From Candidatus Omnitrophota bacterium (GTDB lineage Bacteria; Omnitrophota; Gorgyraeia; B26-G9): a stretch of DNA of 64,000 nt. Below, piece after piece: positions 2,002 through 63,896 of this stretch. Location: NCBI GenBank assembly GCA_043806135.1, contig JAZDHG010000034.1:6283-70282 (forward strand), in the 5' to 3' direction. The notes under the pieces are model-generated. The model did no database searches, was not told the DNA's origin, and saw nothing but the letters and a program-made list of their open reading frames with translations. A program made the translations under genes and the position numbers. Positions within the stretch are counted from its first letter, which is position 1; every line of letters starts with the position of its first letter.

Positions 2002-2029
2002 AAGTATTATTTCCCTATTATTGATTAAG

Positions 2030-2899: not shown

Positions 2900-2984
2900 A
2901 GGTTCACTCCAATTTTTATTATTAAAAAGGCACCTTCCTACATATTATCAATATATAATTGTAATTATCAGAATGTCAAGCAAA

Positions 2985-14571: not shown

Positions 14572-14940
14572 TTAAGCGTTGCTGCAGGTTATTATTTCCT
14601 TCAAATGCACACGGCTTTCAATATTCATCTCAGAAAACTCAATGCCGATCTTATACTTCTCCTGGTACGGAACCTGCTCTACCCATACTACCCTGCCTAG
14701 AGTAATTATCGGCTCTGTATCATTAGAGGGAAAGATCTCAAGAATCATTTTAGAATTCACGGGGTAAAAATAAAACGACGAAAGCTGTATACCGCTTTCG
14801 CTGCAATCATGGGTCATTGAATTGTGAATTATCCCCGCGTGTTCTTGAAGCATTTGTCTAAGCTGTACAGGAAAGTCCGCGTTTTTCCTAAAAAATTCTC
14901 TGCGTTCTTTAACTGCTCCTTGGACAGTCATAACTATCAC
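14572..14940 (-). CDS. Stand-alone PilZ domain protein (c-di-GMP receptor-like)
   Basis: 122 aa with RREFFR (RxxxR) and DCSESG (DxSxxG) at canonical spacing. Confidence 0.7.
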   Translation of the reverse strand: MIVMTVQGAVKERREFFRKNADFPVQLRQMLQEHAGIIHNSMTHDCSESGIQLSSFYFYPVNSKMILEIFPSNDTEPIITLGRVVWVEQVPYQEKYKIGIEFSEMNIESRVHLKEIITCSNA

Positions 14941-34004: not shown

Positions 34005-34372
34005 ATAATCCGCATACATAAGCTGGATTATACCTGATTACAACGATTATTAAAAGATTACAAAGATTAAACCATTAATCTCCGCACTTGGCAGCTTTTA
34101 TTGCCAAAGTTTATTAATAGCCCAACATTATATCCTGATGCTTTTAGACACGATATAAACTGAACTCCAAATACAACAGGAATATTGCGAGCTATGACCT
34201 TAAATTTAACACGCTCCACCTATCTCCCACAGCCCACCGCGTAGGTGGGATGTAGGTGGGAAGTGGCATTGTGCAGGAGATTATTTTTTCAGTGGAGGGA
34301 TCTCTCTCCTTAATCACTGTAATCTCCCCTCTAATCTATGCGATCAAGACATCCTGCTACCTTCCCGTCATA
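34005..34372 (-). pseudogene. Decayed GxxExxY cassette (copy B). Start and C-terminal regions are retained, and the central ~270 bp is replaced by ~110 bp carrying a REP-like palindrome.
   Basis: 34295-34370 aligns to 6721-6796 with the start codon changed from ATG to GTG, and 33991-34180 aligns to 6296-6480. The middle segment (34221-34262) contains a tcccac..cccacc-gcgta-ggtggg..gtgggaa nested inverted repeat. It overlaps the 3' end of the following radical SAM gene by about 15 bp. Confidence 0.55.
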
Positions 34373-45091: not shown

Positions 45092-46573
45092 CTAAAATTG
45101 CTTTCCTAACGTCTTTTTGACTTTCTGTATAAAAGCATCCGGAATGATTTTTTTCACAATATAATAATATTTATGCCACCAGCGCAAATAAAAAGGCACT
45201 GTAACCCTTTGAAAAAGGCTAAGTCTTCTCAGTGAGTCCCTGCTCGTAAAATCATTTGTCTTAATCGCATTGTTCTTATCAATTTCATTGCCCAGGAACA
45301 TATGCTGCCCAGCAGAAATATCCGCAATATACCCTTTTTCTTTACATTCATCAAAAAGTTTAGTACCGGGATATGCCCTTGTGATCGTAGCATAGAATTC
45401 GTCAACTCCGATCTTCTTTAGTTTTTTTACAAAGTTTAGTGTTTTTTTAAAACTTCTTTCAGTCTCACCAGGATATCCGATCATAAAAAAAGCGTTTGTT
45501 TTAATTCCCAGTCTTTTACAAATTCGCGTTATTTCAAGCACCTTACTAAGATTGAGTCTTTTATTCATACGCTTTAGCATATCCGCATCACCGGATTCAA
45601 CCGCCAAGTTAAGGAAAATACAATTTGAGGCTTTGATCTGTTCAAGCAATTCCTCATCCAGAGTATCCACTCTTACTCCGTTAGGTGCAGACCAGGAAAT
45701 ATTAGCCCCTTTATTATTTAAAAAAATAATCCCCTGTACAATTTCCTGCATGCGTTTTTTTTCAAAAGTAAGGTTATCATCTTCAAATTCTATATGCTGA
45801 ACTTTAAACTCTTCAACAAGCAATTTAATCTCAGCAAGCACATTTTCCGATGATCTCTTCCTCCATGTATAACCTGTTATCGAATGGATTGAACAAAATG
45901 TACAGTCATAAGGACACCCACGTGAGGTTATCATACTTACTGTCCTAATCCTGTCTCTACGCGGTGAACAAAAAGACAAATATTGATGCATCGGCAGTTT
46001 ATTTCTTGCCGGATATGGAATGTCATCAAGGTTTTCTATTATTTTGGCACGCCTTACCCGGCTGACCGGTTGTGAATAAGCCAAAACTCCCTGAATCTGT
46101 TCCGGGTTATGGCCTGAAATGATTTCAAGCAAAGGCAGCTCTCCTTCACCCACCACATAGTAATCTATATCCGCACAAAATGCATCCCGAGGTGTAAGGG
46201 ACGGATACACTCCTCCCAATATTATCGGTTTATCAGGGAAACCTGCTTTTATCTCATGTGCCAGCTCTTTGACAATCTTCGCATTATTAGTAAAAGGAGC
46301 GGAGATACCGATAAAGTCAGTATCCTCAGGTATTCTTTTAACAATGCTTTCATACTCCAATCCTACCTGCAAAGATATCTGTTGTCCTGCAGATATCTTT
46401 TTATGATTAAGAACGCCTTCTGCCAAAGCATCAATTATACTTACTTCATGCCCGTGTTTCAGCAGAAACGCCGCTAGATACGCAATACCTAAATTCTGAG
46501 AAAGAACAATATCACGCTCATGCGCAAAAACCCATGGAGGATTAATAAGAATGATTTTTTTTGATTTTAGCAT
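45092..46573 (-). CDS. B12-binding-domain radical SAM enzyme (class B)
   Basis: KKIILINPP N-terminus, CPYDCTFC. A close paralog of the 34357-35868 gene. Confidence 0.8.
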   Translation of the reverse strand: MLKSKKIILINPPWVFAHERDIVLSQNLGIAYLAAFLLKHGHEVSIIDALAEGVLNHKKISAGQQISLQVGLEYESIVKRIPEDTDFIGISAPFTNNAKIVKELAHEIKAGFPDKPIILGGVYPSLTPRDAFCADIDYYVVGEGELPLLEIISGHNPEQIQGVLAYSQPVSRVRRAKIIENLDDIPYPARNKLPMHQYLSFCSPRRDRIRTVSMITSRGCPYDCTFCSIHSITGYTWRKRSSENVLAEIKLLVEEFKVQHIEFEDDNLTFEKKRMQEIVQGIIFLNNKGANISWSAPNGVRVDTLDEELLEQIKASNCIFLNLAVESGDADMLKRMNKRLNLSKVLEITRICKRLGIKTNAFFMIGYPGETERSFKKTLNFVKKLKKIGVDEFYATITRAYPGTKLFDECKEKGYIADISAGQHMFLGNEIDKNNAIKTNDFTSRDSLRRLSLFQRVTVPFYLRWWHKYYYIVKKIIPDAFIQKVKKTLGKQF

Positions 46574-46638: not shown

Positions 46639-48114
46639 TTAATCTTGCTTTAAGCTGTAAATCGGTCTGTAAAGATAATATCTTTCATTGCTATGGCCGA
46701 ATATACCAGTCTCTACTTTGTGTAATAATCGATATTTTGAGGTTTCACTCACTGGTATTTTGTTGTTTAAAAGAATTAATGTCTTATTTTTTGGAAAATT
46801 ATTCTTATTTATTCTTCTTACAATTTCTTCAAAAGGGATAAATATATCTCTTCTGTATTTTTTATTCCAGGTGACAAATGTTCCGTATTGTTCAACATCC
46901 GCATACCAGAATTTAATATTCGGAATATACGGTAACAAAGAACTTGTATACGCTGACTCATGCGCAACGATAATATAATCGGTAAGATCGCTGCTTTTTA
47001 AAAAGTTTGTCATTTCTTTAGCTCCGGAGAACAAGAAATTATACTCTTGATAATGCCGAAGCCCGGCCGGTACAATCGATATTGCTAAACAAATATTCAA
47101 GGCTACGATTATTCCGTTGTATTCAAACAATTTGCTCCAAGCAGTTAATTTAGATTTTTGATTAGCGGTAGATTTTTTATTTTCGCATCCGGTGATCCAT
47201 AATGTAAATAATAATATTATTAGAATAAAACCAAAATGTCTGTAGCCCCAAAGAGACTTAAATATAAACAGATAAAATAAACCCAAATATGAGCAGAGCA
47301 TAATGAAAAATACTCTAAATGAAATTTTATAAATGTAAACACATACGCTGATTAATATTACTATAGCTGCTAGGAAGCTGCTATAAGCAGCAATATTCGG
47401 TGAACAGGGAAAAAATGCATATCCTATCGCAAAGAATAGGTTATAAAAATCAAATGCAGAGCAGAACCCGTAGTTCATATTATCTACAGGAGACAGAAGC
47501 TGAATAAAGGCGATTACAGCGCCGCAACCCATTATAAACAAAGCAGTTATTCGCTGTGAGTTTAATTGTTTATTTTGCCAACTTTCAAATAAAAAAACTG
47601 CGGATAAAGATATGGCGATAAAACAGCTATGCACATTAGTATTGAAAAGCAAAAAAATCAAACCAGCATAGATCATCGGTTTTTTAAACCGGGCCCCATA
47701 CAATGCAGCAATTAAGAATAACATTAAAACACTCAGACTATAGCTTCTTGCTATAATTGAGTACTCCCAAGCCATATAATAAGAACACATAAACAGGGTT
47801 TTTGTTATATTTGAAAATGGTGATTTATACACAAAAATTGCCGCGGCCAAACAGATTATGACTAAATTTATTAAATTCATCGATACATATGGCAAGCCAA
47901 GTTTAGCAAAAGGCAATAAAATCATATGCCAAAGAGCCGGCGTTCCTTCGTAAACCATTTGGCTAAAGATAGAAAAAAAAGGCAGGTCTCTGGCAATTAA
48001 CCAGGCTTGGGCCTCGTCTCTCCAAGGCTCGTGATGAAATACAGTAAAACCCATGGTCAGAGCATAAAGAATAAAAAGCAGAGTTTCCCATGAAATTATT
48101 TTATTTTTCTTCAT
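46639..48114 (-). CDS. Polytopic membrane protein, putative GT-C-type glycosyltransferase (start trimmed)
   Basis: More than 12 TM helices. [18 protein letters not shown] first periplasmic loop with conserved acidic residues. The track ORF starts at 48168, overlapping the upstream gene by 68 nt. MKKNKIISW at 48114 is more plausible. Confidence 0.35.
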
Positions 48115-49675
48115 GATATTCCTCTTCTGTATTGACCTGCCAGATATTATCTTTAGATGTATTGCCATTTACAATATTTTCAACTGCAGTCATTGCTGTA
48201 AGCATTGAATGATCCGCATTATTGTATTTATGCATCCCATTTCTTCCAATCAAAAATAGATTATTTATCTTATCAGTAAAATCCCTAATTACATGAAAAC
48301 TGTCATAACTGCCGAAATATGCCGGATATGTTTTCGGCATTCTGATAACAGTCGAATCCAAAACATCATTTTTATCAATGATATCAATCTGAGTTAATTC
48401 ATTGATAGCAAACTCTGCGAACTCATCATTGGATTTGCTCCATAACTCATCTCCTTCATTACAAAAGTATTCTAACCCGATCCAAACCTTATCAGGATCT
48501 TTTACCATATACGGGCTCCAGTTGTTAAAAATCTGCAGCCGACCAAGTTTTACATCTTTTTCCTGAATATATATCCAGTTATCCGGCACAATATTATTAA
48601 CAGTGGGAATTTTAGTTTCATTTCTTATTTTCATCTTTTCCAAAAGAAGTCCAATAGTTATGAAATCCCGATACATTAATCCTTTTGCAACTTTTTGGAC
48701 CGGATCCGGGACGCTCGGATTCATAGACGCAATAAGCTCTTTAACCGGCATGGTTGAAAACAAAAAATCGCATTTATATTCATTTTTATCATTTGTTACA
48801 TTGCTTTTTACTCCGACCCCAGATACTAAGCCTCCGGATATGTTAACCGCAACAACTTTACTCTCCATGTGAATCTCTCCACCCTTTGCAATTATTTTCC
48901 GGGCGACTTCTTCCCATAACTGGCCCGGTCCTAATTTCGGGTAATAAAACTGCTCAATCAATGATGTTTCCGTTTTCTTTTGAGCAATCGATGTGTCCTT
49001 TTTGAAAAAACCTTTAAACGCGTGAATTATCGCTTTGCTGATAGATAATCCCTTAACGCGCTGCGCGCCCCACTCAGGCTTTATTTTACTGCACTGGACA
49101 CCCCATACTTTTTCCGTATAATCTTCAAAAAACAGCCGGTAAAGCTGTTTGCCGAACCTATTGATGAAAAAATCCTCCAGCGATTTTTCTTTCTTGATAG
49201 GAAATAATTGGGACTTAATATAACTGAATCCAATGCGAATTATCTTTGTCATCCCTAAATTCTTAAATGTATTCCATTTTAAAGATATCGGATAATCAAA
49301 AAAGGAACGCTTAAAGAATATGCGTGAAATGCGTCTTCGAATCAACATAACCAGATCATTTTTTTCAGGATCCGGAGCATTTTCTTTTTTGGAAACAGCA
49401 ACACTTCTATTAAGGATAATATCGTCTCTAGATGGGCTGCCTTGCAATGAAAGTATGTTACTCCACCAATCCATAACCCGGTCTGATTTAGAGAAGAATC
49501 GATGACCGCCGATATCGATGCGATTACCTTTATAGTTAACTGTCTTTGATATCCCGCCGATATCAGAGGATATCTCAAAAATAACCGGTTTAATATCTGT
49601 CTTATGGAGAAGTTCATAAGCCGCAGTCAGTCCAGCCGGGCCAGCACCAACAATTACTGCAATTTTCTGATTCAT
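48101..49675 (-). CDS. FAD/NAD(P)-binding oxidoreductase (amine-oxidase/UDP-galactopyranose-mutase-like)
   Basis: [18 protein letters not shown] dinucleotide-binding motif, IDIGGHRFF. 524 aa. Confidence 0.65.
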
Positions 49676-51075: not shown

Positions 51076-52503
51076 TTATATGTTCAATGACACTTTATTT
51101 TTGCTTATTAAAATTTGCTTTGCAGTTATCATCAAAATAAAATAAATACTCAGTCCGCCAAAGCTCGACAACAGTAAAATATTTAGATCTGTAGTTATAA
51201 TAAAATATTTAATAAGGCTAAGTACCCCTGCAATTAGTCCTGATATTAGAAATGCAGGTGAAATTGCTTGAACTAACATCTTATCGTCTAAATTAATTAA
51301 TTTATTACAAACATGAAGGGAGAAAGGGACCCAGCCCAATGTATATAGTGCATAAAAAGAGGCAACTCCCTTTATCCCCCATTTTAACCCTATTAGAATA
51401 CACCCGGTAACAATAAATGTTCCCACTGCCTGCAGCTTAAACTGCGTATCACTTTTTCCTTGAGACCTAAATATATTTCCCACTGTCGTCTCTATAGATT
51501 GAAACATGCCGCAAAAACATAAAATTCTTAACACCGGGATAACCGGCTCCCATTGAAAACCAAACACTACCCTAATAAATTCAGGAGCTACTACGAACAA
51601 GCCCAGCATCAAAGGAAAAGTAACCAGTGAAATCGCCTTTACCATTTTCAAGTAGTTATTTCGCACTTTCTCTAAATCATGCTGAATCTTTGAGAAAGCC
51701 GGGAACATAACTCCCTCAATGACATGAGAAACATTCTGTAAAGGATATAACATGATTTTGTAAGCTAAGGTATAAAAGCCTAATGCTCCCGCACCAAGAA
51801 ATTTACCGACCAGAAGATAATCTACATTTCTGGCAAAATACTCAACAATATTAAACCCTGTTATATTCGCGCTAAAATTGAAAATTTCCTTAATAGCATC
51901 TTTTGAAAATAAAAACGAAGGGCGCCATGACGAGAAAATCCATAATAGACAAGTCTTAACAAAAATAAAACTCATAAAATGCAAAACCAGGCTCCATACC
52001 CCCATTCCCTGCAAAGCCGCATAAATCCCGATTATGCCGGCCAGTACCACAGCGGTGCTCTCGGCTATTGAGATCGCTCTAAAATCCATCTTCTTTTGTA
52101 ACTTCGCTGACTGGACAATTGAGAAGGAGGATATAAAACAGCTTATAGATATTACTCTGATTAGATCAATCAAAATTGGTTTTGCATAAAAACTTGCTAT
52201 AAGCGGAGCGCTTAACCAGAAGATTACGACAAGAATTATACCGGCAAATATATTCAGCCAAAAAGCGGAAGAATAATGTTCCTCATTTACTTTTTCTCTT
52301 TGGATTAAAGCTGCGCTTACCCCTAACTCTCCAAACATTAACGCAAATCCAAAATAGACTGTAACCATTCCAATAAGACCAAAATCATACGGTGTTAACA
52401 AGCGGGCAAGGATAGCGAGAATAACAAACTGACTAATTTGCCTAAATATACGAGTTCCAAAAGACCAGCCAAGGCCCTGAATAGTTTTTTTTCTTAAACT
52501 CAT
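51076..52503 (-). CDS. wzx: Wzx-type flippase (MOP superfamily polysaccharide transporter)
   Basis: About 14 TM helices. N-terminus MSLRKKTIQGLGWSFGTRIFRQISQFVILAILARLLTP is typical of Wzx/RfbX. The start is taken at the internal ATG, 7 codons inside the track ORF. Confidence 0.7.
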   Translation of the reverse strand: MSLRKKTIQGLGWSFGTRIFRQISQFVILAILARLLTPYDFGLIGMVTVYFGFALMFGELGVSAALIQREKVNEEHYSSAFWLNIFAGIILVVIFWLSAPLIASFYAKPILIDLIRVISISCFISSFSIVQSAKLQKKMDFRAISIAESTAVVLAGIIGIYAALQGMGVWSLVLHFMSFIFVKTCLLWIFSSWRPSFLFSKDAIKEIFNFSANITGFNIVEYFARNVDYLLVGKFLGAGALGFYTLAYKIMLYPLQNVSHVIEGVMFPAFSKIQHDLEKVRNNYLKMVKAISLVTFPLMLGLFVVAPEFIRVVFGFQWEPVIPVLRILCFCGMFQSIETTVGNIFRSQGKSDTQFKLQAVGTFIVTGCILIGLKWGIKGVASFYALYTLGWVPFSLHVCNKLINLDDKMLVQAISPAFLISGLIAGVLSLIKYFIITTDLNILLLSSFGGLSIYFILMITAKQILISKNKVSLNI

Positions 52504-52547
52504 TAGTTTAACTCCGATATGCAATATTAAAAAACCTATATTCCATT

Positions 52548-54044
52548 TTAGACTTTAAAATTCAAAACATATTTGACCCGAACCCATAATTCCCTTGGAC
52601 TCTTATAGTGCTCTTTAAGTTCAAGAAATAACTTATACGGATTAAGCATCTTCAGCCTTTGCTTTTTCCGGTTGTGCCGCAAAAATTCTTTTTCAGTACT
52701 TTCAATAATATCTTGCAAACGATCTTTTGGTAATTTATTCGTTAAAAACATACCCGGACTCTGATGAAAAAAAGTGCTCCAATTTATGTTTTTTGGGATA
52801 AGACCATCCTGCTTATACATCTCATAGAGCTCAGTTGCGGGATAAGGCGTGGAAATACTGTAAACTGCAAATTGAGGATCCAGTTCTTTCATAAAATCAA
52901 CTGTCTGCTTTATCTCATCTTCACCTTCCCATGGGAATCCAATCATGAAAAATATAGCCGTTTCCATGCGATTTTTCTTGCAAATCTTCACTGCCCTGCG
53001 TATTTGGTCCAAGGTAATGTTCTTTTTTATCTTTTTTAGAGTAAGTTCGCTGCCTGATTCCGCACCAAGCAAAATTTTTGAACAGCCTGCTTTTTTCATA
53101 ATTTTTAACAAATCATCTGTTAATAAATCAACTCTTGTTTCGCATCCCCAGTTTATCCTGATATTTTTGGATAATAAAAGAGTACATATCTGTTTAACAT
53201 AAGAGATATTAAGTGAAAAACTATCATCTTCAAAATGAAAATAAGCCGGGTTATAGCTGGTATTAATGCGCTCAATCTCATTGATAACATTTTCAGGGGA
53301 TCTATACCTGACTTTCTTTGACCATATAGCATTTGAAGCGCAAAAAATACAATTATAGGGACAGCCGCGGCTTGCAAAAATACGGCTGAAGTCATCAGGA
53401 AGCATTTTCTCCTTATTTATAATAAGATAATTCACCGGATGAGGAAGCTCATCTAAATCAGTGACCAACTCTCTGGGAGCATTTCTAACTATCTTGCCAT
53501 TTACCTTATGTACAATGCCCCTGATCTGCGTCAAATCCATTTTTCCTTCAAGAATTGCCCGGGTGAGGTCTAAAAAACTATACTCTCCTTCTCCAAACAC
53601 TAAAAAATCAAAACAATCATTATTAATAGTTTCCTCAGGCAAGAGCGTGGGATGAAGTCCGCCAACTACAACCTTAATTTCCGGATTGATCCTTTTTACA
53701 AGTTTACCTAGGGTTAGAGAGGCCTGGTATTTTGGTGTTAGAACCGTAATCCCAACAATTTTGGGGTTATATTCCCTGATTACTGCTTCTGCTTCCTTCC
53801 AAATCGGCGCATCTATACTGGACACCGTCTCTAAATACTTGGCATAATTTTTTGTTGTGGAAAAAGCATCGACAGGATAGGCACCTCTTTGCAAATCCGC
53901 GTTATATACGCGAGACTGGATACCATTTTTTTCAAGGACAGCAGCAAGGCTGCATAATCCTATAGGACGAGTAGATTTTTGCTGGCCAAAAAATCGATAC
54001 CAAGGAGGGTCAATAAGTAGAACATCTAGATTTTCTTTAGCCAT
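52548..54044 (-). CDS. B12-binding-domain radical SAM enzyme (class B)
   Basis: CPYNCIFC, N-terminal VLLIDPP B12 domain. The start is taken at MAKEN. Confidence 0.8.
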   Translation of the reverse strand: MAKENLDVLLIDPPWYRFFGQQKSTRPIGLCSLAAVLEKNGIQSRVYNADLQRGAYPVDAFSTTKNYAKYLETVSSIDAPIWKEAEAVIREYNPKIVGITVLTPKYQASLTLGKLVKRINPEIKVVVGGLHPTLLPEETINNDCFDFLVFGEGEYSFLDLTRAILEGKMDLTQIRGIVHKVNGKIVRNAPRELVTDLDELPHPVNYLIINKEKMLPDDFSRIFASRGCPYNCIFCASNAIWSKKVRYRSPENVINEIERINTSYNPAYFHFEDDSFSLNISYVKQICTLLLSKNIRINWGCETRVDLLTDDLLKIMKKAGCSKILLGAESGSELTLKKIKKNITLDQIRRAVKICKKNRMETAIFFMIGFPWEGEDEIKQTVDFMKELDPQFAVYSISTPYPATELYEMYKQDGLIPKNINWSTFFHQSPGMFLTNKLPKDRLQDIIESTEKEFLRHNRKKQRLKMLNPYKLFLELKEHYKSPRELWVRVKYVLNFKV

Positions 54045-54220
54045 AATACATACCATTCCCGCGCTTATATGTTCTTTAAGCCCACAAAACAGTTCCGACC
54101 TTAATAATTCAGCATAACTCTTTTTATTATTATAACATACGATTAAATCAACATCAATATCGGTTATGTACTTAAGACAAATAACTTCACGGAATCAATA
54201 AGCTTTTTTCTTATGCTTTA

Positions 54221-55018
54221 TTAAAAAGACTTTATTTTTCCAAGGAACATATTTTTAAAATAAGTGAGCTGCTGCAGAAAGTAAAGATAGGGGCTGAAAA
54301 CCGATTTATATGAGGGGGCATTTTCTCTCTTATCGCTAATATACAATGCTTTTTTCTTAGTATTGGCTCTAGCGATTTGGATAGAGAATGGGGTCATTAA
54401 AACTATTTTTAAATCAAATAACATTGATCTGTTTTGAATATAAAAGAGGTCGTGTTCTACTCTTTTAATAATTGATGTATTAGCGCGATACCCATTAACC
54501 TGTGCCCATCCGGTAAGCCCTGCTTTAACAGTATGACGCAAATCATAATTCTTAATTGTCTTCTTAAACCGCTCAATAAAATATGGTCTTTCCGGTCTGG
54601 GGCCTACTAAACTCATATCTCCCCGCAGCACATTCACCAACTGGGGAAGCTCGTCAATAAGCAGGATTCTCAATAACCGTCCGAATCTAGTGCTTCTGGG
54701 ATCATCGGTCTTTCCCCACTCAGGGCCTTTGTCGTTTTCCACCTTATCCGGCATTGAACGGAATTTATACAACCAGAATACTCTCCCGCCCTTTGTGCAT
54801 CTTTCTTGCTTATAAATAACCGGGCCCGGAGAGCTTAACTTAACCATTATTGCCACGAACAACATTAAAGGGGAACTTAGTATCAATAACAATAACGATC
54901 CCGCTATATCCATTACCCTTTTTATAAAAGCATAAGAGAAGATTAAAGAACATATCTCCGCAGCTTCGTTCAAATATGATTGTCTATTTGCTAGATTTAA
55001 AGTATGATTAATAAACAT
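54221..55018 (-). CDS. Polyprenyl-phosphate glycosyl-1-phosphate transferase (PglC/WbaP-C-like priming enzyme)
   Basis: Single N-terminal TM, LYKFRSM ... DELPQL ... GDMSLVGPRP signature of bacterial sugar transferases. Confidence 0.8.
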   Translation of the reverse strand: MFINHTLNLANRQSYLNEAAEICSLIFSYAFIKRVMDIAGSLLLLILSSPLMLFVAIMVKLSSPGPVIYKQERCTKGGRVFWLYKFRSMPDKVENDKGPEWGKTDDPRSTRFGRLLRILLIDELPQLVNVLRGDMSLVGPRPERPYFIERFKKTIKNYDLRHTVKAGLTGWAQVNGYRANTSIIKRVEHDLFYIQNRSMLFDLKIVLMTPFSIQIARANTKKKALYISDKRENAPSYKSVFSPYLYFLQQLTYFKNMFLGKIKSF

Positions 55019-55052: not shown

Positions 55053-56717
55053 TTAGGCCATTTCTTTATTAATATCCAACTCCAGATCATAAAACTTAAC
55101 CCCTGCAGCGTATCCAGGGTTACCGTCATTTACTGCGACAGGAGATGTCCAAACTACTACCCCGTTACCCACAATAGGCTTCATTTTATCACGATGTATT
55201 TCAAATTCAAGAATATTTTTCGGCTGTAATTTTTCGGTTGTGACAATCTTCATTCCTGAACGCCCGACATCCTTACTCCAGCATATATGTTTCTTTTTTT
55301 GTCCGACAACTGTACATGTAACTTTATTAGATGTTTTTGAACGCTGTGACGATCTCCTTTCTTCAAATTTCCCAAAATCATGTTCGGATTGCACTTCATG
55401 CACAGAAGAAACAGAAAAAACAAGGGCCATGGCAAACCCAATCGTTAACCCGACAAGTACCCCCAACAAAAGATTAGTCAATAAATTTGGTTTAACCGGA
55501 GAATCCGGAACATCGGCAAGTTCTATTATTTCTGCATCAGGAAGCATATTGGTTCTCTGTTTTAAAATTTTTAACTCTTGGAGCTTTGCCTTAAGATCAG
55601 CATAAACTTCTCTTTTCATTTCAATATCACGATTGAGCCGGGCTAATTTAGGCTGGGTTTGAAGCGCTTTATTTAGCCTATTGGTTTGTTTTTCGTGATT
55701 TTCAATCAATGCTTCTTTTTTTCCAATTAAAGATTTTTTTTCTATCACTAAAGATTCTATCTCTGCCTTTACAATCTTATCGCTTTCCTTAGCCAGATCG
55801 ATTGTTAATTTAGCAATCGCCGCCTGAGCAACCATTACATCCGGATGATTTAAATTAAATTCTCCCATTAAAACATCCATCTTGAGATCAGCTAAACGGA
55901 TTTGTGATTTTAAGTCGTTTATAAGTTCATTATCTGTAAGAAATTTCAGGTTTAAATTTTCAGAATCATTTTTCTCCACCCGCCCTTTAATTTCAACGAT
56001 TTTAGTATTTAACATCTCTATATCAGCGTTAACAGCAGCTACATGCATGTCTAAATCAGCATATTTTTGCAGACTCAAAACTATATCCGACCCAAAGAGC
56101 ATAATCATATTATCTTGACTAGCTATTTCATTCAACTCCTCCTCAACAGCGTTAAAATCCTTTTTTGCCGTTTCGATCTCTTTTTCCAAGGCGGAAATAA
56201 TTCGCTCGACAGTTTCACTTTTTAATTTTACTCTGTTTTCAATATAGGTTTCTGCTATCGCATTTGCTAACATTGAGGCAAACAAAGGGTTCGGCTGCTG
56301 TACCTGAAGCTCTAAAACATTTGTGCCTTCTAATAGAGTAAGACTGATTTTTTTCTGTAACATACTCTTATTTAATGAGTTGGGATCCAAACCTTTAAAT
56401 TCCTCTTTCGAAAAATCTATTTTTTGCAGTGCCTTGTCTATAACAGATCTGCTCTTTATAATTTCAGCTTGTGAATTAGCAAATTGCCATCCGGTCTCAT
56501 AAGAGGGAAACTCATCTTTAGGATTGAGTTTCTCTTCCCTAACCAATATTTTTGTACTTACCTCATATATGGGTTTCACAAATACTTTAGTAGCAAAAAA
56601 AGCAGCCGCCAGTGTTATGATAATTGAGCTAGCAATAATCAGTTTACCTCTTCTAATAACATTCAGGATATCGATTGAATCAATATCATTTTGTATTAAA
56701 TTTGAATTTTTCATCAT
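55053..56717 (-). CDS. Polysaccharide chain-length determinant protein (Wzz/GumC-like, no kinase domain) with a C-terminal PilZ-like domain
   Basis: N-terminal Wzz region plus TM1, a long coiled-coil periplasmic region, and TM2 (LLTNLLLGVLVGLTIGFAMALVF). The roughly 100-aa cytoplasmic tail has RRSSQR (RxxxR) and a degenerate DVGRSG, followed by beta-strand patterning reminiscent of PilZ. Confidence 0.7.
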   Translation of the reverse strand: MMKNSNLIQNDIDSIDILNVIRRGKLIIASSIIITLAAAFFATKVFVKPIYEVSTKILVREEKLNPKDEFPSYETGWQFANSQAEIIKSRSVIDKALQKIDFSKEEFKGLDPNSLNKSMLQKKISLTLLEGTNVLELQVQQPNPLFASMLANAIAETYIENRVKLKSETVERIISALEKEIETAKKDFNAVEEELNEIASQDNMIMLFGSDIVLSLQKYADLDMHVAAVNADIEMLNTKIVEIKGRVEKNDSENLNLKFLTDNELINDLKSQIRLADLKMDVLMGEFNLNHPDVMVAQAAIAKLTIDLAKESDKIVKAEIESLVIEKKSLIGKKEALIENHEKQTNRLNKALQTQPKLARLNRDIEMKREVYADLKAKLQELKILKQRTNMLPDAEIIELADVPDSPVKPNLLTNLLLGVLVGLTIGFAMALVFSVSSVHEVQSEHDFGKFEERRSSQRSKTSNKVTCTVVGQKKKHICWSKDVGRSGMKIVTTEKLQPKNILEFEIHRDKMKPIVGNGVVVWTSPVAVNDGNPGYAAGVKFYDLELDINKEMA

Positions 56718-56740: not shown

Positions 56741-57541
56741 TTAATCTTCAGCAATTTTATAGATTAAATAAGTATCCGCAATGGGTTTGATGGTTCTTCC
56801 GAAAAAGGAGAACAGGTCATCCATTTTACCTATAAAAGTTTTCGGCACATAAACAATATCTCCCGGCTGAAGAATTACATCATTTCTTACTTTTCCTTCT
56901 TTAAGCACGCTTTTTAAATCCGCCGTGAATATATGCGGAACTTTATCATATGGATTACGTATAATAACCGTGTTTTCTAAGTATGAATATTGGGCATACC
57001 CTCCGGATTTGCCTATAGCTTCCAATGCTGTCAGACGCCCCGAAATATTATACATTCCCGGATTTCTAACCTCTCCAAGCACAAGAATCTTTTTACTTCC
57101 GATTTCATTGACTATTACCGTTACCTGGGGATCAAGAATATATTTGTCCTGGAGCCTTGCTGCAATAACTTTGCTTAATTTTTCCGGGCTCAGTCCGCCG
57201 GCTTTTATTTCACCAGCAAGAGGGAGAGATATTCTCCCGTCAGGGCGTATGGTAATTGTTCTGCTTAGATCTTCATTGCGCCATACAGATACCTCTATTA
57301 CATCACCGGATTCAAGCATATACTCAGGATCAGTACCTTTTTCAAAAATTGATTCCTGCTCTTTTGCTATAGACTCTGCTTTCTCAATACTATAGTTTTG
57401 AGCAATATCCTGTTCGCGGTTAACTATATTTGTTGTCGCTGAATATGCTATAACTGAAAAAACAAGCATGCTGGCAAAAGCTAATAAAACTAATAAATTA
57501 ATTAAAACTGCCTTGATAAAAAGTTTTGATCGTTTTTTCAT
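56741..57541 (-). CDS. wza: Wza-type outer-membrane polysaccharide export protein (OPX; Poly_export + SLBB)
   Basis: Signal peptide. GDVIEVSVW..ISLPLAGEIKAGGLSPEKL (Poly_export motif) and an SLBB-like C-terminus. Confidence 0.75.
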   Translation of the reverse strand: MKKRSKLFIKAVLINLLVLLAFASMLVFSVIAYSATTNIVNREQDIAQNYSIEKAESIAKEQESIFEKGTDPEYMLESGDVIEVSVWRNEDLSRTITIRPDGRISLPLAGEIKAGGLSPEKLSKVIAARLQDKYILDPQVTVIVNEIGSKKILVLGEVRNPGMYNISGRLTALEAIGKSGGYAQYSYLENTVIIRNPYDKVPHIFTADLKSVLKEGKVRNDVILQPGDIVYVPKTFIGKMDDLFSFFGRTIKPIADTYLIYKIAED

Positions 57542-58005: not shown

Positions 58006-60978
58006 TTAAGCTGGCACTGCCTTATAAGCATTTATAAAAACAGACATATCTACAATCAGTTTACCTTTATCATTAGTAAAAATAGAAATAATATCATCAA
58101 AACTCATACCCTGGTTTTTCATCACATCAACCAGCTCAGCATGATCATATCCGGCAGCTACCATGGCTGCAGCAATTGCTCTATTATCAAGACCGTTATT
58201 TGATAAAAGATTGTAAGTATTTTCAGTAGTCTGCCCGCCCTGTTGAAGCCCCTTAGTTATACTGCTCCAAGAAACTGAACTATTAACCGCAGCCAAGACC
58301 ACATCTTCTGCCGAATTACCCCATAAGACTAACAAACTCACAACTTTATCTGTCTTACCCGCACCAGCATCTTCAAAAGCGCTAATAATTCTGGTCATAT
58401 CCCAACCCAGTGATTGCATTCCGATCATTAGGTTATCAACTTCACCATGGGAGCCGTCCAGCATTGCCGTTACTATTTCATCGTCACTTAAATTATTGTT
58501 AGTTAAAATCGTAAGTACTTCAAGCGACTCAAAACCATTTGTTTTTAATCCGCTGGCAATTTCCTTCCAGCTTGCACCAGCCTCTTGCACAGTGGAAACA
58601 ACTGCATCAGTTTCAAACCCGGCTTTAAGAAAGGCATCAACCAGTTCTGCGGCATGACTAGGTTTCCCCTTACTTGTAAACGCATCAATCACCTGGTTCA
58701 TATCACTGCCTTGATTCAACATCGCAGTTGCTATATCACCTGCATTATAACCGCCGGCAAGCATCGAAGTAACGATTTTTGAATTGCTTAATCCATTTGA
58801 TGTTAAAACCGTAAAAGTATCAGCAGCGCTTACACCTCCCTGCTGCAAACCTTGCGTAATCGGGTCCCAGTCAATCTTTGCCTCTATCGCAGCAGTAACC
58901 ACTTCATCAACGGAAACTCCGGCTTTAACCAAAGCAGCCACAACTGCAGCCCCCTGGCGAACCACATTGGATTCAGTTACCGTTTCTGTTTCCGTTTCTC
59001 CATCTGTGCTGGTTGTTGTAACAGACTCTTCTTTAAACGCTTCAAATATGCGGGCGCTATCCCATCCCAGGGTAACCATGCCCTGAACCATTTTGCCGAT
59101 ATTCCCTCCGCCTTTATCCATCATTGCGCTTACAACTTCCTTATCACTAAGGCCGTTATCTTTAAGGTATTGAACTATTTTATCAAAATCAGCATTGCCA
59201 AATTCCATTCCCTTGGCAATATCTTTAACCTTCATCCCTGCTTCTTTTGCAGCCGCAGCTATTTCTTCAAAGGTATATTTGCCTGATTTCATTAAAGCAC
59301 TGACCACCGATTTTCCTACTTTAACATTAACAACAATTTTATTTTTGAATGCCTTAAATATAGAATTCATATCCATTCCCAGATTGATTAGTCCGGCAAC
59401 AATACCGCCGGCATCTCTGCCGCTATCAAGCATCTTTCCTACTACCTCAATGTCGCTTAACCCCTGTTCAGATAGAATAGTATAGACCTCCTCTGAGCTC
59501 ATACCAGTTGATACTAAACCCTTGGTAATATTCTCCCAGGATGTCCCCGCCTTTCTGACTGCCGTAATAACCTCTTCTGCTGAATATCCGGCTTTTATCA
59601 AGCCTGTAACAACTGCTGCATCATCCTTAGCTCCGTCAAAAGAAGCAATAATTGTCTCCATGCTCCAGCCCAACTCGTTCATGGCGATTACCATGCTGCC
59701 AGCGCCGAAATTTGTATTCTTACGCAGAGCATCAACTATTTTCTTTTCCGTTAATCCGTTTGACTGTAAAATTTCAATGATTTCACTTATGGTTGAACCG
59801 GAATTTTTAAGGCCCAAAGATATTTTATCCCAGCTGATTCCGGCCTTACTTGCTGCACTGACAACCTCTTCTATGGTAAATTTTTTCGAGTTGATCAAAG
59901 CCACGCAAAGCAGCTCTCCCTTGGAATTTCCTTCAGTTTTAAAAGCATTAAAAATTTCCTCAGCACTTTTTCCCATAGCGATCATTGCATTTACCAGATC
60001 GTTAGTGTTAGTGCCTCCATCAAGAAGGTATCCTACAACTTTGCTTTCACTGACCCCCTGTTCTTCCATAACAGAGAACACTTCTTCAATACTCAAACCG
60101 CCGGCACTTAGTCCAGCCACTATATTTTTAATGGAAATCCCTGCTCCCTTTGCAGCAGAGATAACATCATCAGTGGAAATTCCTGATTTAACCAATGCTG
60201 CCACCACCTCAGCAGCCTTACGCACAATACCAGTGTCTACATTTTTAAATGACTTAAAAATTTGGTCAGTGCTCATGCCTTGGGCAATCATTCCCTTAAC
60301 AATATCACTTGTAGTATAGTTGCCATCAAGCATCATTGTTACAATCTGCCTATCTTCATAACCGGCATTCTGCAAGATCAAAAGAACTTCCTGAGCCGAT
60401 GCGCCGGACTTTTTAAGCGCAGTGACAATTTCCGTATATGAATATCCCTTTGCAATTAATGATTTTGTCATGTCTTCATAACTTACCCCAGCATTTTCAA
60501 GTGCTGAGTTATCAGCCATAACCTCTTTTTGATTATTAACTAACGCGGCAGGCACTACTTTAGCGGCCTCTTCTTTGGAAAATACCTCAGCAATCAAATT
60601 ATAGGCAACATCCCCATATCCCAGAGAAATAAGCCCCAAAGCAATATCATTGCTGGAAAAACCTGATTTCTTTAGAGTGCTTACAATATTACTTAAATCT
60701 GTTCCTGCACTCACAAATCCGGTTATTAAACCTTTTACATCTTCAACGGTTGAAGCGCTTTGCTGAGTATTACTACTTCCTCCCGTATTTATATACTCTG
60801 TAGTCACTGGTTTTCTGTTAACTTGATCATCGCTAATTTCCTGATTTACATTTGTATCTGATGTTTGCGGGTCAATCTGTTCCGGCAAAATAGCGCCATG
60901 AAGCATCCCGTAAGCTCCAAGCGTAAACAGAAAAACTATCATGAGATTAATAATAGTGAACATTTTCATGATAAGCAC
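58006..60978 (-). CDS. Large secreted tandem-repeat protein (about 9 helical repeats of ~95 aa) in the PilY1 position. Putative pilus-associated factor of unknown family.
   Basis: 990 aa. Signal peptide MKMFTIINLMIVFLFTLGAYG. Repeats follow the pattern ..VVAALVKAG.S.D.V..A...AGISW..I..GL...G.S.EEV...L...GLS...IV..MLDGG....D.V..M...G.....I..AFK. Confidence 0.6.
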   Translation of the reverse strand: MLIMKMFTIINLMIVFLFTLGAYGMLHGAILPEQIDPQTSDTNVNQEISDDQVNRKPVTTEYINTGGSSNTQQSASTVEDVKGLITGFVSAGTDLSNIVSTLKKSGFSSNDIALGLISLGYGDVAYNLIAEVFSKEEAAKVVPAALVNNQKEVMADNSALENAGVSYEDMTKSLIAKGYSYTEIVTALKKSGASAQEVLLILQNAGYEDRQIVTMMLDGNYTTSDIVKGMIAQGMSTDQIFKSFKNVDTGIVRKAAEVVAALVKSGISTDDVISAAKGAGISIKNIVAGLSAGGLSIEEVFSVMEEQGVSESKVVGYLLDGGTNTNDLVNAMIAMGKSAEEIFNAFKTEGNSKGELLCVALINSKKFTIEEVVSAASKAGISWDKISLGLKNSGSTISEIIEILQSNGLTEKKIVDALRKNTNFGAGSMVIAMNELGWSMETIIASFDGAKDDAAVVTGLIKAGYSAEEVITAVRKAGTSWENITKGLVSTGMSSEEVYTILSEQGLSDIEVVGKMLDSGRDAGGIVAGLINLGMDMNSIFKAFKNKIVVNVKVGKSVVSALMKSGKYTFEEIAAAAKEAGMKVKDIAKGMEFGNADFDKIVQYLKDNGLSDKEVVSAMMDKGGGNIGKMVQGMVTLGWDSARIFEAFKEESVTTTSTDGETETETVTESNVVRQGAAVVAALVKAGVSVDEVVTAAIEAKIDWDPITQGLQQGGVSAADTFTVLTSNGLSNSKIVTSMLAGGYNAGDIATAMLNQGSDMNQVIDAFTSKGKPSHAAELVDAFLKAGFETDAVVSTVQEAGASWKEIASGLKTNGFESLEVLTILTNNNLSDDEIVTAMLDGSHGEVDNLMIGMQSLGWDMTRIISAFEDAGAGKTDKVVSLLVLWGNSAEDVVLAAVNSSVSWSSITKGLQQGGQTTENTYNLLSNNGLDNRAIAAAMVAAGYDHAELVDVMKNQGMSFDDIISIFTNDKGKLIVDMSVFINAYKAVPA

Positions 60979-61445
60979 CCATCCTTATTGAAACACTTTA
61001 TGAACATCATGTTGTTTATATCCAATAATTAAATTTTTTAAATATAAAAATATAAGCCGAATTGCCATTAATATCTTCGGCAACCCGGCTGTCATAGCAA
61101 TCGCTTTAGACCCGCAGTTTTACCCCGGCTTCGTTTTTTATTCTCCGCCGGGTCCGGCAAGCTTACCTTGAGATATTAACCCCATAAGCGTAACCGGAGC
61201 CCCTGCCTTTCGGAAGGTTTGTCTTTTCGGACACTATTTTACAAATATAGTTATTAATCTCTTTATAAAAGTATATCATGAAATACAATAACTTGCAACC
61301 AGAAAACTTATCTTCTTGCATTTAAATCTGTTGTAGATATAAAGAAGCAGCTGTAAAATCCGCAAAAGAAATATAATCCAGATATGATAAGGTTTCTAAA
61401 ATAAGAAGCAGTTTAAAAAAACAGCAGGTTATAATGTTTTAGTTT

Positions 61446-62720
61446 TTAAGGAGTGGTATACCCTCGCCAGGAAGTTACAAAATAACCTAAGATTAAAGCT
61501 TCAGGATCTTCTCTTGACGCAATATCATAATGATATTTCAAGCCTGTAGTACATTCTACTGTTTTACCGACAACACTGCCATAAAAAACAGTGTCCGGGC
61601 CAATTCGAACATCAGCATTAGGCGCGTAAATATTCCCATAAAATCCACTGGCATGCGAACTAAGATTAAATGAAGCTACATTGTCAGTACAATAAATCTT
61701 AAACCTTAGAGGATCATAGGTAGTATTGTCAATTTTTGCCCCATTTCCAAAAGTAGTATTTCCATTTAGCCATAATTTGGCAGTATTTCCAGGATTTATT
61801 AAAATCTTGCTGTTAACACCAAGCTTCAGTTCCCCGATCACATAAATATCAACATTAGCATTAATTTCAAGTATAGCATCCTTTTCAAGCTTAATAGAAT
61901 CATATTCTACCTCATTATCGTTTATTGTAAACGTCGTACCGTTTGACACAGTAAGCGCCCCCCGGTTAGGTGCATATACTCCGGTCTGATCAGGTATTGA
62001 CAGCAGGGGTTTATCCTTATTTAACCATTTCACGGCTCCGTTATATACGCCGGAGCCTGTCAGTAAAATCACATCCGCAGGGTCTCCTCCTAAGCCAATA
62101 GTAATATCTCCAGTAACAATACTGTTGTTGCCGATTTTAATTGTTTTAGCAGCTATTGAATTAGTAACAAAGTCTGCATCTGTGCCTATATTTCCCGCTA
62201 CACCATAAAATCCAATCCGGGAATCATAGCTGTCAACTAAAGCATTGCTTCCGATATTAATGCCGCTATAACCCATGATCGCGTCTTTAAAAAGCTTCTC
62301 CTCAACAGCAATAACCTTAACTGTTTTCGAAGCCATCTGGTTGGCCTGGTTTGGAAAGTAACCTATTGATTCAACTTCATAAGATTTAGGCTCAGTGACT
62401 AAATTAATCACAGTTACAATGAATTCACCAATTGTATCTCCGCCAGGGATACCAATATTTCCTGTTCTTGTCCATTTTACGCCTGTTACTGTTGTCCAGC
62501 CCTCTGTTGCAAGGAATTCCCTTCCGCCATGATTTACTTCCAAGAGCCCAAGTTCCGCGCCGGCTTCAGCAATATGCATTGCTTCAACTTCCGCGTAGGT
62601 TCTTATGGAAATTTGCGCATTTGAATGCACTGATGCCACATAACTTGTACCCAAAATAACCAGGCCCAGAATCAGAATAAGCGATAATAATAAAGCGCTA
62701 CCTTTTTTATTAAATAACAT
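61446..62720 (-). CDS. PilX-like type IV pilus minor component (PilX_N domain plus beta-helix-like C-terminus)
   Basis: N-terminus KKGSALLLSLILILGLVILGTSYVASV .. AEAGAELGL matches PilX_N. The C-terminal G/N/T-rich repeats suggest a parallel beta-helix. Confidence 0.6.
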   Translation of the reverse strand: MLFNKKGSALLLSLILILGLVILGTSYVASVHSNAQISIRTYAEVEAMHIAEAGAELGLLEVNHGGREFLATEGWTTVTGVKWTRTGNIGIPGGDTIGEFIVTVINLVTEPKSYEVESIGYFPNQANQMASKTVKVIAVEEKLFKDAIMGYSGINIGSNALVDSYDSRIGFYGVAGNIGTDADFVTNSIAAKTIKIGNNSIVTGDITIGLGGDPADVILLTGSGVYNGAVKWLNKDKPLLSIPDQTGVYAPNRGALTVSNGTTFTINDNEVEYDSIKLEKDAILEINANVDIYVIGELKLGVNSKILINPGNTAKLWLNGNTTFGNGAKIDNTTYDPLRFKIYCTDNVASFNLSSHASGFYGNIYAPNADVRIGPDTVFYGSVVGKTVECTTGLKYHYDIASREDPEALILGYFVTSWRGYTTP

Positions 62721-62732
62721 GCTGCCTTTCCC

Positions 62733-63386
62733 TTAAAAATTCCGCATCAGAATACTCGTAACTGCATTTGACTGCAGAACACGGCTTCCTAAAACAGTTT
62801 TTGCGGTTGTTAATCTTATTGTTATATTTCTTACCGCTGCTAAAATTCCCACACTGCCAAGTCCTGTACCTCCTGAGCTGAAATTTAAGGCGCTAACATT
62901 ACGCGCAATAATATAAATTCCTCCCGGCCTGGCGCTTGAAGCATCCGGGGCCACGACTCTTTCTAATATTGCCGGGTCATCGTCATTTAAATGATAAACC
63001 ACATAATCAACACTTCCGGTTAAATTCATGAGGTTATTAATAGAAGGGATTCTTAAAACAAGCACATTATCACCGGTTGTGTACGTCTTGCCGCTGATTG
63101 ATCGAGAATTTTCAATAACAATCGCCCATTCAATATCTTTTCTGGCCCAATCCAGGCTTTGTCGTGTTTGCCCATGCAAATCCAGTAATACCGTGCCTGT
63201 TATAAAACTTCGCTGACAGCCAATATATGCGCCAATAATAACCGTGGATATTCCCACAAATATTGCTGTTGAGACGAGCACTTCAACTAAGGTAAACCCC
63301 GTTAGAAAATTACGCTTTTTTGCTTTCTTAAAAAATTCCTTTTTTGAAACCCAATCTATTATGTTTTGCATAAACATTGTTTTCAT
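62733..63386 (-). CDS. Type IV pilus minor pilin (PilW/FimT-like, prepilin-type N-terminal methylation domain)
   Basis: GFTLVEVLVSTAIFVGISTVIIGAY class III signal/N-methylation motif. Confidence 0.6.
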   Translation of the reverse strand: MKTMFMQNIIDWVSKKEFFKKAKKRNFLTGFTLVEVLVSTAIFVGISTVIIGAYIGCQRSFITGTVLLDLHGQTRQSLDWARKDIEWAIVIENSRSISGKTYTTGDNVLVLRIPSINNLMNLTGSVDYVVYHLNDDDPAILERVVAPDASSARPGGIYIIARNVSALNFSSGGTGLGSVGILAAVRNITIRLTTAKTVLGSRVLQSNAVTSILMRNF

Positions 63387-63476
63387 GCAAATTGCCCTTT
63401 CTTAACTTTTATCTCCACTTCTTTTCTGTGTTTTTTCTAACGGGGTAAACCCTTTTTGTCTTTTCATGATTTTTTT

Positions 63477-63896
63477 TTAAGAGCTGATCCCTTCATCCGT
63501 TATATAAGTAACCAAGCTTCTGGTCAGAGACTGCCCTGCAGGAGAATCCCAGGTAATTGTAACCGTAACCCGAACGATTCTGCTAATCGGGAAAACAGGT
63601 TCAGGAGGAGAATCAACAAGTATCTGCCCTTGCGGATTGCTAAGCTGGGTAAATCCTGCAGATATGAACGTTGATGATGGAGTAGTAATAATTGTACTGA
63701 ATTGAGTTTGACGGATTAATTCCATCTGCTCTTCAAGCATATTAATAACCAGATTATTGGCTTGCACCTCGGCAATAAACATCGTACCTTTGGAAAAAAG
63801 CATGAATATTCCCATTAATGATGCACTCAAAATAATCATTGTCATAAGTATTTCTACTAAAGTGAATCCTTTGTTTTTTCTTACTTTAAAACTCAT
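63477..63896 (-). CDS. Type IV pilus minor pilin PilV-like
   Basis: MSFKVRKNKGFTLVEILMTMIILSASLMGIF prepilin motif. 139 aa. Confidence 0.7.
   Translation of the reverse strand: MSFKVRKNKGFTLVEILMTMIILSASLMGIFMLFSKGTMFIAEVQANNLVINMLEEQMELIRQTQFSTIITTPSSTFISAGFTQLSNPQGQILVDSPPEPVFPISRIVRVTVTITWDSPAGQSLTRSLVTYITDEGISS

Follow-up and report, generated by a model that had tools for sequence, protein, structure and literature searches.

Does cyclic di-GMP (c-di-GMP), a second messenger, act directly on the machinery of a Wzx/Wzy polysaccharide pathway in the uncultured Omnitrophota? The question is raised by a contig of a Candidatus Omnitrophota bacterium (JAZDHG010000034.1), of which we analysed a stretch of 64,000 nucleotides, called the window throughout. 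An open reading frame (ORF) on its minus strand (55053..56717) encodes a polysaccharide co-polymerase (PCP) of 554 residues that ends in a PilZ domain, and we refer to this protein as PCP-PilZ. Its sequence and that of the surrounding locus suggest that these bacteria have a Wzx/Wzy polysaccharide pathway that would be switched by c-di-GMP directly. We regard it as close to certain that a genuine PilZ fold has been fused to a PCP, and the best overall explanation of the data, which we hold with moderate confidence, is that PCP-PilZ is a c-di-GMP-switched, Wzc-like co-polymerase of the Wzx/Wzy pathway.

The PilZ tail and its co-polymerase scaffold

Membership of the PCP family was judged by the Pfam markers Wzz (PF02706) and GNVR (PF13807), with the curated gathering scores of Pfam as thresholds. 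PCP-PilZ contains both, Wzz at residues 10-99 (52.5 bits against a cut-off of 25.5) and GNVR at residues 354-433 (48.9 bits against 27.7), followed at residues 453-548 by PilZ (PF07238), which scores 34.7 bits (E 2.3e-8; cut-off 22.5) in the whole protein and 38.7 bits (E 1.3e-9) when the tail is searched by itself. The original prediction, made from the letters alone, had read the roughly 100 residues after the second transmembrane (TM) helix as PilZ-like; Pfam bears this out with its match above the gathering score, in a tail that measures 116 residues past TM2. NCBIfam gives sub-threshold matches only to the PCP families eps_transp_fam, EpsF, pepcterm_ChnLen and Wzc, together with a weak match to the PilZ-related TIGR02266, and in neither database does PCP-PilZ match a P-loop or kinase family.

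The layout of the protein can be followed along the minus strand from an ATG that has a Shine-Dalgarno-like AGGGTGA ~6 nt 5' of it. Hydropathy finds exactly two TM segments, TM1 at residues ~24-46 (56580..56648; AlphaFold2 (AF2) helix 17-46) and TM2 at residues 412-438 (55404..55484; also seen by AF2), the latter with the sequence LLTNLLLGVLVGLTIGFAMALVFSVSS. The short cytoplasmic N-terminus before TM1 bears the D-I-D-S-I-D motif typical of PCPs, and residues 47-411 (55485..56579) make up the periplasmic PCP domain, which AF2 and Foldseek describe as a Wzc-like alpha/beta base with long helical hairpins. After TM2 comes a juxtamembrane linker (residues 439-452; 55362..55403), hypervariable in the alignment and modelled by AF2 with a local confidence (pLDDT) below 50, then PilZ motif 1, E453-R-R-S-S-Q-R459 (RRxxxR; 55341..55361), and a six-stranded beta-barrel (residues 460-542; 55092..55340) supported by the AF2 model of the tail, by Foldseek and by the profile match. 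Within the barrel lies motif 2, D483-V-G-R-S-G488 (55254..55271), a variant in which [D/N]hGxxG replaces [D/N]hSxxG. Sequence and alignment thus locate the two motifs that had been picked out beforehand as RRSSQR and a degenerate KDVGRSG. The final 115 codons of the ORF and its stop codon occupy 55053..55400.

For the tail, AF2 gives a six-stranded model from 14 sequences of the family, with a pLDDT of 76-91 over the blocks of the barrel and 85-91 in its core. Searched in the PDB with Foldseek, this model has only PilZ domains among its top 14 matches (MrkH, YcgR, BcsA, VCA0042/PlzD and MotI/DgrA; 3kyg is among the matches), as anticipated for a PilZ-type barrel, with a probability of 1.0 and query-normalised TM-scores of 0.5-0.62; the E-values, from 1.5e-3 up, are normal for a 90-residue barrel. 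Against the PDB sequences, a profile of the tails only gave chance-level matches and no PilZ, and one that also took in the stand-alone PilZ proteins nearest to them retrieved MotI/DgrA of B. subtilis (5vx6, E 4.5e-8), in an alignment where RxxxR and [D/N]xSxxG coincide. The full-length AF2 model (pLDDT 71.7) is composed, in order, of TM1, the alpha/beta base, the long helical hairpins (helices spanning residues 144-391), TM2, a disordered linker (434-458) and the barrel. Its best PDB matches are to E. coli Wzc (9r68, 9r62 and 7nhr; E 1e-11 to 1e-9), followed by KpsE and WzzE, and a Wzz-Wzy complex is among its structural matches. Since the part of the protein outside the tail resembles Wzc, the PilZ domain occupies the position of the bacterial tyrosine (BY) kinase of PCP-2a proteins, and PCP-PilZ is, as modelled, a Wzc-like (PCP-2-type) PCP with PilZ in the place of the BY-kinase.

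The kinase itself is missing from the window. Pfam scans of the window, in which long ORFs (at least 110-120 residues) were taken as genes, found no BY-kinase, and a hidden Markov model (HMM) of the BY-kinase built from 20 Wzc-like sequences, which gave 36 matches in its positive control, matched no six-frame segment of the window at E<=10; Walker motifs, a kinase and a Wzb phosphatase were likewise not found with Pfam and this HMM. The gene tables of homologous loci also hold no BY-kinase. That the protein has neither a BY-kinase domain nor a BY-kinase partner, as originally proposed, therefore holds within the 64-kb window. All features of a PCP that we tested are present, namely the Pfam domains, two TM segments with a helical periplasmic domain, and a setting of genes for Wzx, Wzy, an outer-membrane polysaccharide export (OPX) protein and a phosphoglycosyl transferase (PGT); the C-terminal BY-kinase of PCP-2a proteins, with its Walker A, A' and B motifs and tyrosine-rich tail, is absent. 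On the PilZ side, the profile match, the six-stranded barrel and RxxxR are in place, motif 2 deviates at its serine and the canonical C-terminal helix is lacking.

With the PCP-2a proteins (E. coli K30 Wzc; the three structures above) PCP-PilZ shares a cytoplasmic N-terminus, TM1, a large helical periplasmic domain, GNVR, TM2 and a C-terminal cytoplasmic regulatory domain, as well as a gene beside that of OPX in a Wzx/Wzy cluster; sequence identity is just 20-25%, however, and the regulatory domain is a PilZ barrel of ~100 residues instead of a BY-kinase of ~250 residues with a tyrosine cluster. The kinase-less PCP-2 proteins (GumC, EpsF of TIGR03017 and the XrtA-system proteins of TIGR03007) share the two-TM periplasmic core of ~440 residues and give the best partial NCBIfam matches (82 and 60 bits), which are far below the equivalog cut-offs. 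They end shortly after TM2 and usually have a separate kinase such as EpsG, whereas PCP-PilZ adds a PilZ domain and has no such kinase nearby. MotI/DgrA (YpfA, 5vx6), the closest solved PilZ by profile and a proven c-di-GMP receptor, differs in that it is soluble, consists of two domains (PilZN-PilZ), acts as a flagellar clutch and has the canonical serine and a C-terminal helix. In Caulobacter, c-di-GMP reportedly controls the holdfast system, a pathway of Wzx/Wzy type, directly and after translation through HfsJ (Hug et al., 2017), which is a precedent; the receptor there is a glycosyltransferase without PilZ, and not a co-polymerase.

The original prediction had also drawn a parallel with the PilZ control of alginate and cellulose by Alg44 and BcsA, which stands as a functional comparison and fails as one of architecture. 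Alg44, like PCP-PilZ, carries PilZ on a periplasmic scaffold that is anchored in the membrane and belongs to a machine for polysaccharide secretion, and the two presumably follow the same logic, with c-di-GMP licensing polymerisation (PMC8461298). Its PilZ domain is N-terminal, however, and is joined to a single TM segment and a HlyD-like membrane fusion protein (MFP) domain, with the family 2 glycosyltransferase (GT2) synthase Alg8 as its partner in a synthase-dependent pathway. In PCP-PilZ the PilZ domain is at the opposite terminus, the periplasmic domain is of the Wzz/GNVR type, there is no GT2 domain and the pathway is of the Wzx/Wzy class; no HlyD signal was found with Pfam, which rules out an Alg44-like MFP. 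BcsA has the same order of TM helix, RxxxR linker and PilZ barrel (Foldseek aligns ~146-148 columns to 4p00 and 5ej1), and in it the arginines of the juxtamembrane linker are the ligand sensor, but the PilZ domain of BcsA retains the C-terminal helices and lies against the GT2 catalytic domain and the gating loop of the same protein, whereas PCP-PilZ is without a catalytic domain.

How far does this architecture extend? Among 5.8 billion proteins there are 17 close matches to PCP-PilZ, of which 13 are full-length (552-555 residues, 58-66% identity), two are fragments and two, P0015 (42%) and P0017 (30%), are more distant. Nearly all of them hold precomputed Wzz, GNVR and PilZ domains, all the named ones are from Candidatus Omnitrophota/Omnitrophica metagenome-assembled genomes, and two bear the name 'PilZ domain-containing protein'; beyond the family, at 20-25% identity, come PCP-2a proteins of the usual kind with a kinase. 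When 1.84 billion representatives were searched exhaustively by phmmer with the tail alone, this yielded four more GNVR-PilZ or Wzz-GNVR-PilZ clusters (P0063, P0064, P0066 and the fragment P0073), and P0104 and P0105 were added by a search from the distant clade; the divergent C-terminal alignment, used as a profile query, returned four fragments only. No exact copy of the window protein is on record in the assembly index. Scans with highly clade-specific peptide patterns, which gauge the rarity of the clade and are uninformative on independent fusions elsewhere, found five loci in the GTDB species genomes (four labelled Omnitrophota and one 'Planctomycetia') and four in JGI metagenomes, and show that the clade is rare. 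Judged by its sequences, the family of ~25 clusters at 90% identity is real but small and rare, and by names it is limited to one candidate phylum.

PilZ motifs and c-di-GMP-related elements of the locus

The positions that are invariant in both the 16 full-length members and an eight-member divergent set are E453, R455, R459, G488, W523, G539, K541 and F542. The RRxxxR block to which the first three belong lies 15-21 residues after TM2, and its conservation stands out from that of the preceding linker: mean identity to the window protein is 21% over residues 438-452 (column entropy 2.32 bits) and 71% over E-R-R-x-x-x-R (0.97 bits). The PilZ barrel (65%, 1.02 bits) is also well kept, the periplasmic domain less so (57%, 1.27 bits). 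A ligand-binding RxxxR loop would be expected to show this pattern, in which a hypervariable linker leads straight into a loop that is predicted to be disordered and yet holds an invariant pair of arginines, and a chance occurrence of RxxxR is excluded because the block is invariant next to so variable a stretch.

The second motif and the end of the domain vary more within the family. Six of the 16 close members have a canonical D-h-S-S-S-G, all of the distant members (P0063, P0064, P0066, P0073 and P0017) bear a canonical D/N-h-S-x-x-G, and the D-h-G-x-x-G variant is also found in the stand-alone PilZ relatives P0076, P0078 and P0092. The C-terminal helix defines the canonical PilZ domain and is the key element in its protein interactions (Galperin & Chou, 10.1101/814665). 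The window clade, P0015, P0063 and P0064 stop ~10 residues beyond the last strand, and P0017, P0066 and P0073 retain a helix-like extension by alignment. With no helix and with its motifs kept, the window protein is, as far as its sequence goes, a derived PilZ that is helix-less but motif-bearing.

Independent evidence that the locus belongs to a c-di-GMP regulon comes from RNA. The sole above-threshold Rfam match in the whole window is a c-di-GMP-I riboswitch aptamer (RF01051; 61076..61145, minus strand; 41.7 bits against a gathering score of 35), which lies on the same strand as the OPX/PCP-PilZ/PGT operon and one gene upstream of it. The gene in between (58006..60978, minus strand), which begins ~100 nt downstream of the riboswitch and precedes the OPX gene, encodes a 990-residue protein that starts with a hydrophobic N-terminal segment and contains numerous helical repeats, each ~35 residues long (with a pattern like 'SG.S..DIV.AL..AG'), to which Pfam gives piecemeal UBA-like and other weak matches; its likely true start is the ATG at 60969, and it may be a matrix or adhesin-like protein. 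Right after the aptamer, a 12-bp hairpin (AGCCGGGUUGCC / GGCAAUUCGGCU) with the U-rich tail UUAUAUUUUUAUAUUU (61040..61090, minus strand) dominates the predicted fold, both at minimum free energy and in the centroid. The 5' arm of this hairpin is the 3' strand of the P2 stem of the aptamer, so that ligand binding should prevent termination, and we infer that the hairpin is a putative terminator of an ON-type transcriptional switch. A terminator-like site was not found between the repeat-protein gene and the OPX gene, nor was an Rfam match directly upstream of the latter.

The same arrangement recurs in one related locus, L002, where the riboswitch (340..406, plus strand; 42.2 bits) is followed by the repeat-protein gene (523..3531; 68% identical) and then by the OPX, PCP-PilZ (42%) and PGT genes in this order. 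The remaining related loci, several of them cut off too early, gave no riboswitch match. Further c-di-GMP-related genes are scattered through the window and its relatives. The window also encodes two more canonical PilZ proteins, one a fusion of PilZ to a T2SSE (PilB/PilT-like) ATPase, with RRQFAR and NLSAAG (6853..8181, minus strand), and the other a stand-alone PilZ protein of 122 residues, with RREFFR and DCSESG (14572..14940, minus strand). L010 has a gene for a GAF-GGDEF protein at a distance of 9 kb from the operon, and in L001, a related Omnitrophota contig, two ComFB-domain genes, one of them fused to CheR, and a weak PilZ gene (2298..3712) are found upstream of the PCP-PilZ operon at 5-8 kb; the ComFB family of c-di-NMP receptors was described recently (PMC12448109). 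Directly upstream of the riboswitch in the window is a pseudopilin-like set (61446..63896, minus strand), which encodes one protein with DUF7305 and two that bear a methylation motif at the N-terminus.

A proposed switch and its alternatives

We propose that c-di-GMP would bind with the invariant RRxxxR block on one side of it and, on the other, the barrel strand that carries D-h-G/S-x-x-G, probably as an intercalated dimer, by analogy with other RRxxxR PilZ domains; work on PP4397 and VCA0042 L135R reportedly found that such domains bind an intercalated c-di-GMP dimer. In the window protein RxxxR starts just 15 residues past TM2, so binding should order the linker and dock the barrel under the membrane, as in BcsA: the otherwise disordered juxtamembrane linker would be wrapped round the ligand and the barrel drawn up beneath TM2. 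As a result, the PCP ring would change in how it packs or oligomerises, a role played in Wzc by ring assembly of the kinase domains and by phosphorylation cycling. Cryo-EM of Wzc has shown that its cytoplasmic kinase ring and its phosphorylation state govern assembly of the octamer. High c-di-GMP would then switch on Wzy polymerisation and OPX-coupled export, although whether binding activates is, on the analogies available, about an even call. Together with the apparently ON-type riboswitch, this would put the locus under two-tier c-di-GMP control. In its most specific form, which we put forward tentatively and with some doubt, the proposal is that in this Omnitrophota lineage c-di-GMP took over the job of the tyrosine autophosphorylation cycling of Wzc, with a helix-less PilZ gating PCP assembly, Wzy polymerisation and OPX export, jointly with a riboswitch that turns on the 990-residue protein.

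A number of points weigh against a c-di-GMP-switched co-polymerase and temper our confidence in it. Motif 2 reads D/N-h-G-R-S-G in the window protein and in 9 of the 15 other close members, with glycine in place of serine, and we know of no experimentally validated c-di-GMP binder with this substitution in [D/N]hSxxG. The canonical C-terminal helix is absent, the protein ending 12 residues past the last strand with no helix predicted by AF2, and the helix-less PilZ-like domains discussed by Galperin & Chou among solved structures also lost c-di-GMP binding (10.1101/814665). The riboswitch controls the gene next to it, and its reach into the OPX operon would need read-through; Pfam scans found no diguanylate cyclase or phosphodiesterase (GGDEF, EAL or HD-GYP) in the window. 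The sign of the effect, activation, and the oligomerisation mechanism are both drawn purely from analogy. That the tail would bind c-di-GMP is a prediction from motifs and models, which we consider fairly likely.

The deviations in motif 2 and at the C-terminus would also fit a tail that keeps the PilZ fold in a degenerate, non-binding form and serves as a constitutive protein-protein docking module, with the PGT, a glycosyltransferase and a cytoskeletal or partner protein as examples of what it might dock to, in the manner of PilZ/XAC1133 and xPilZ. The loss of binding in the helix-less examples just mentioned is in keeping with this, as are the matches of the family profile, in the C-terminal half, to the non-binding PilZ proteins of type IV pili (3dsg and 4f48; E 1e-3). 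Non-binding PilZ proteins typically lose RxxxR, however, whereas E-x-R-x-x-x-R is invariant in every member of this family despite its place in a disordered loop beside a hypervariable linker, which is hard to explain without a ligand. The residue D483, the hydrophobic h residue and G488 are kept, and members with the canonical serine occur inside the same close clade, so that we think a non-binding tail unlikely.

Binding might, on the other hand, have a different output: inhibition, a change in modal chain length, or the recruitment or localisation of the machinery, for example at a pole or at the neighbouring pilus-like system. PCPs are primarily regulators of chain length and processivity (the Wzz family; compare the matches to WzzE and the Wzz-Wzy complex), the outputs of PilZ domains are diverse, being a brake in YcgR and MotI and an activator in BcsA, and pseudopilin genes adjoin the locus. 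Against this, all characterised direct inputs of c-di-GMP to polysaccharide machines are activating (PMC8461298) and the adjacent riboswitch is apparently of the ON type. We judge these other outputs rather improbable as the explanation of the locus. An artefact of assembly or gene calling, in which a frameshift joined a PCP gene to a small PilZ gene, is conceivable in general terms, stand-alone PilZ genes being common in the genome, as is a remnant of a truncated kinase. The former is refuted because the same architecture is found as a single unbroken ORF of 552-567 codons in more than 20 independent assemblies (NCBI, JGI, ENA and Logan). The latter, which would have contradicted the PilZ assignment from the start, is ruled out by Pfam, NCBIfam and our BY-kinase HMM, and the fold search gave no kinase signal either; we give these explanations almost no credence.

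To what extent is the arrangement new? A review of the direct control of exopolysaccharides by c-di-GMP, which is established for synthase-dependent polymers, covers cellulose, alginate, Pel and PNAG only and never mentions Wzy or Wzc (PMC8461298), and according to a 2025 paper the way in which Wzx/Wzy pathways are controlled after translation is "incompletely understood", unlike the control of synthase systems by c-di-GMP (PMC12802240). The PilZ survey of Galperin & Chou makes no mention of Wzz or GNVR fusions (10.1101/814665), and we found no description of a PCP-PilZ fusion in the full-text literature on PilZ with Wzz, chain length, PCP, Wzc or Wzy-dependent systems. The earlier statement that this is not a described arrangement is thus correct for the literature searched, but has to be qualified in that homologues already bear the label 'PilZ domain-containing protein' from the automated annotation of NCBI and Pfam; the novelty is therefore one of recognition and interpretation, not of an unseen sequence. 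If the proposed switch is correct, direct c-di-GMP control would be extended to Wzx/Wzy pathways, which are much more widespread than synthase-dependent ones, and with PCP-PilZ a receptor for a second messenger would for the first time form part of the polymerisation/export stage in such a pathway. The natural swap of a BY-kinase for PilZ, in which a ligand-switched module replaces a phosphorylation cycle, would offer a simple tool for studying the role of the cytoplasmic domain of PCP-2 proteins. It would also add a helix-less yet motif-bearing variant to the PilZ repertoire and give a first functional handle on the regulation of surface polymers in the uncultured phylum Omnitrophota.

The polysaccharide cluster and its neighbours

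The PCP-PilZ gene is embedded in a polysaccharide cluster of ~27 kb, all on the minus strand and with its functions assigned by Pfam. It is preceded, with a gap of 23 nt, by the gene of a short OPX protein of 266 residues (Poly_export and SLBB; 56741..57541) and followed, after 34 nt, by that of the initiating PGT (Bac_transf, 265 residues; 54221..55018). A Wzx-type flippase (Polysacc_synt_3; 51076..52524) and a Wzy-type polymerase (Wzy_C; 38994..40487) are encoded further along, and the cluster also holds GT1 and GT2 glycosyltransferases, several methyltransferases, GtrA and five B12-binding radical S-adenosylmethionine (SAM) enzymes. The assignment of the protein to the co-polymerases of Wzx/Wzy type, made in the original prediction, agrees with this setting and with the Wzc-like model.

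Gene tables and tblastn show that the order OPX, PCP-PilZ, PGT is kept in all 12 related loci wherever flanking sequence exists, the clade at 30% identity included. OPX adjoins PCP-PilZ in 11 of them, the twelfth (L008) breaking off inside the PCP gene, and PGT likewise in 11, the twelfth (L004) stopping ~185 nt past the PCP gene. When L002 is compared with the window, OPX is 80%, PGT 66% and the repeat protein 68% identical, and PCP-PilZ just 42%; by this sequence comparison, the co-polymerase would either evolve faster than its neighbours or have been exchanged between clusters. The OPX protein of the window, with one SLBB unit, is much shorter than Wza; OPX proteins of such small size may depend on a second protein that forms a beta-barrel in the outer membrane, and the cluster showed no recognisable gene for one.

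The genes for the B12-binding radical-SAM enzymes (52548..54056, 45092..46573, 42693..44210, 34357..35868 and 32536..33990, all on the minus strand) have counterparts in the homologous clusters L001, L002, L003 and L010. Their number, together with at least five SAM methyltransferases in the same Wzx/Wzy cluster, suggests that the glycan is unusually heavily modified and possibly C-methylated. The cluster also contains an ORF of 509 residues (46639..48168, minus strand) that has no Pfam match at E<=0.01 and shares 68 nt with the amine-oxidase-like gene upstream of it (48101..49675). Near the other end of the window, a 572-residue membrane GT2 protein (Glyco_tranf_2_3; 2985..4703, minus strand) adjoins genes for two tetratricopeptide repeat (TPR) proteins and rmlA/rmlC-like genes, and with 1240..2899 (minus strand) this region could be a second polysaccharide system in the window, of the synthase type.

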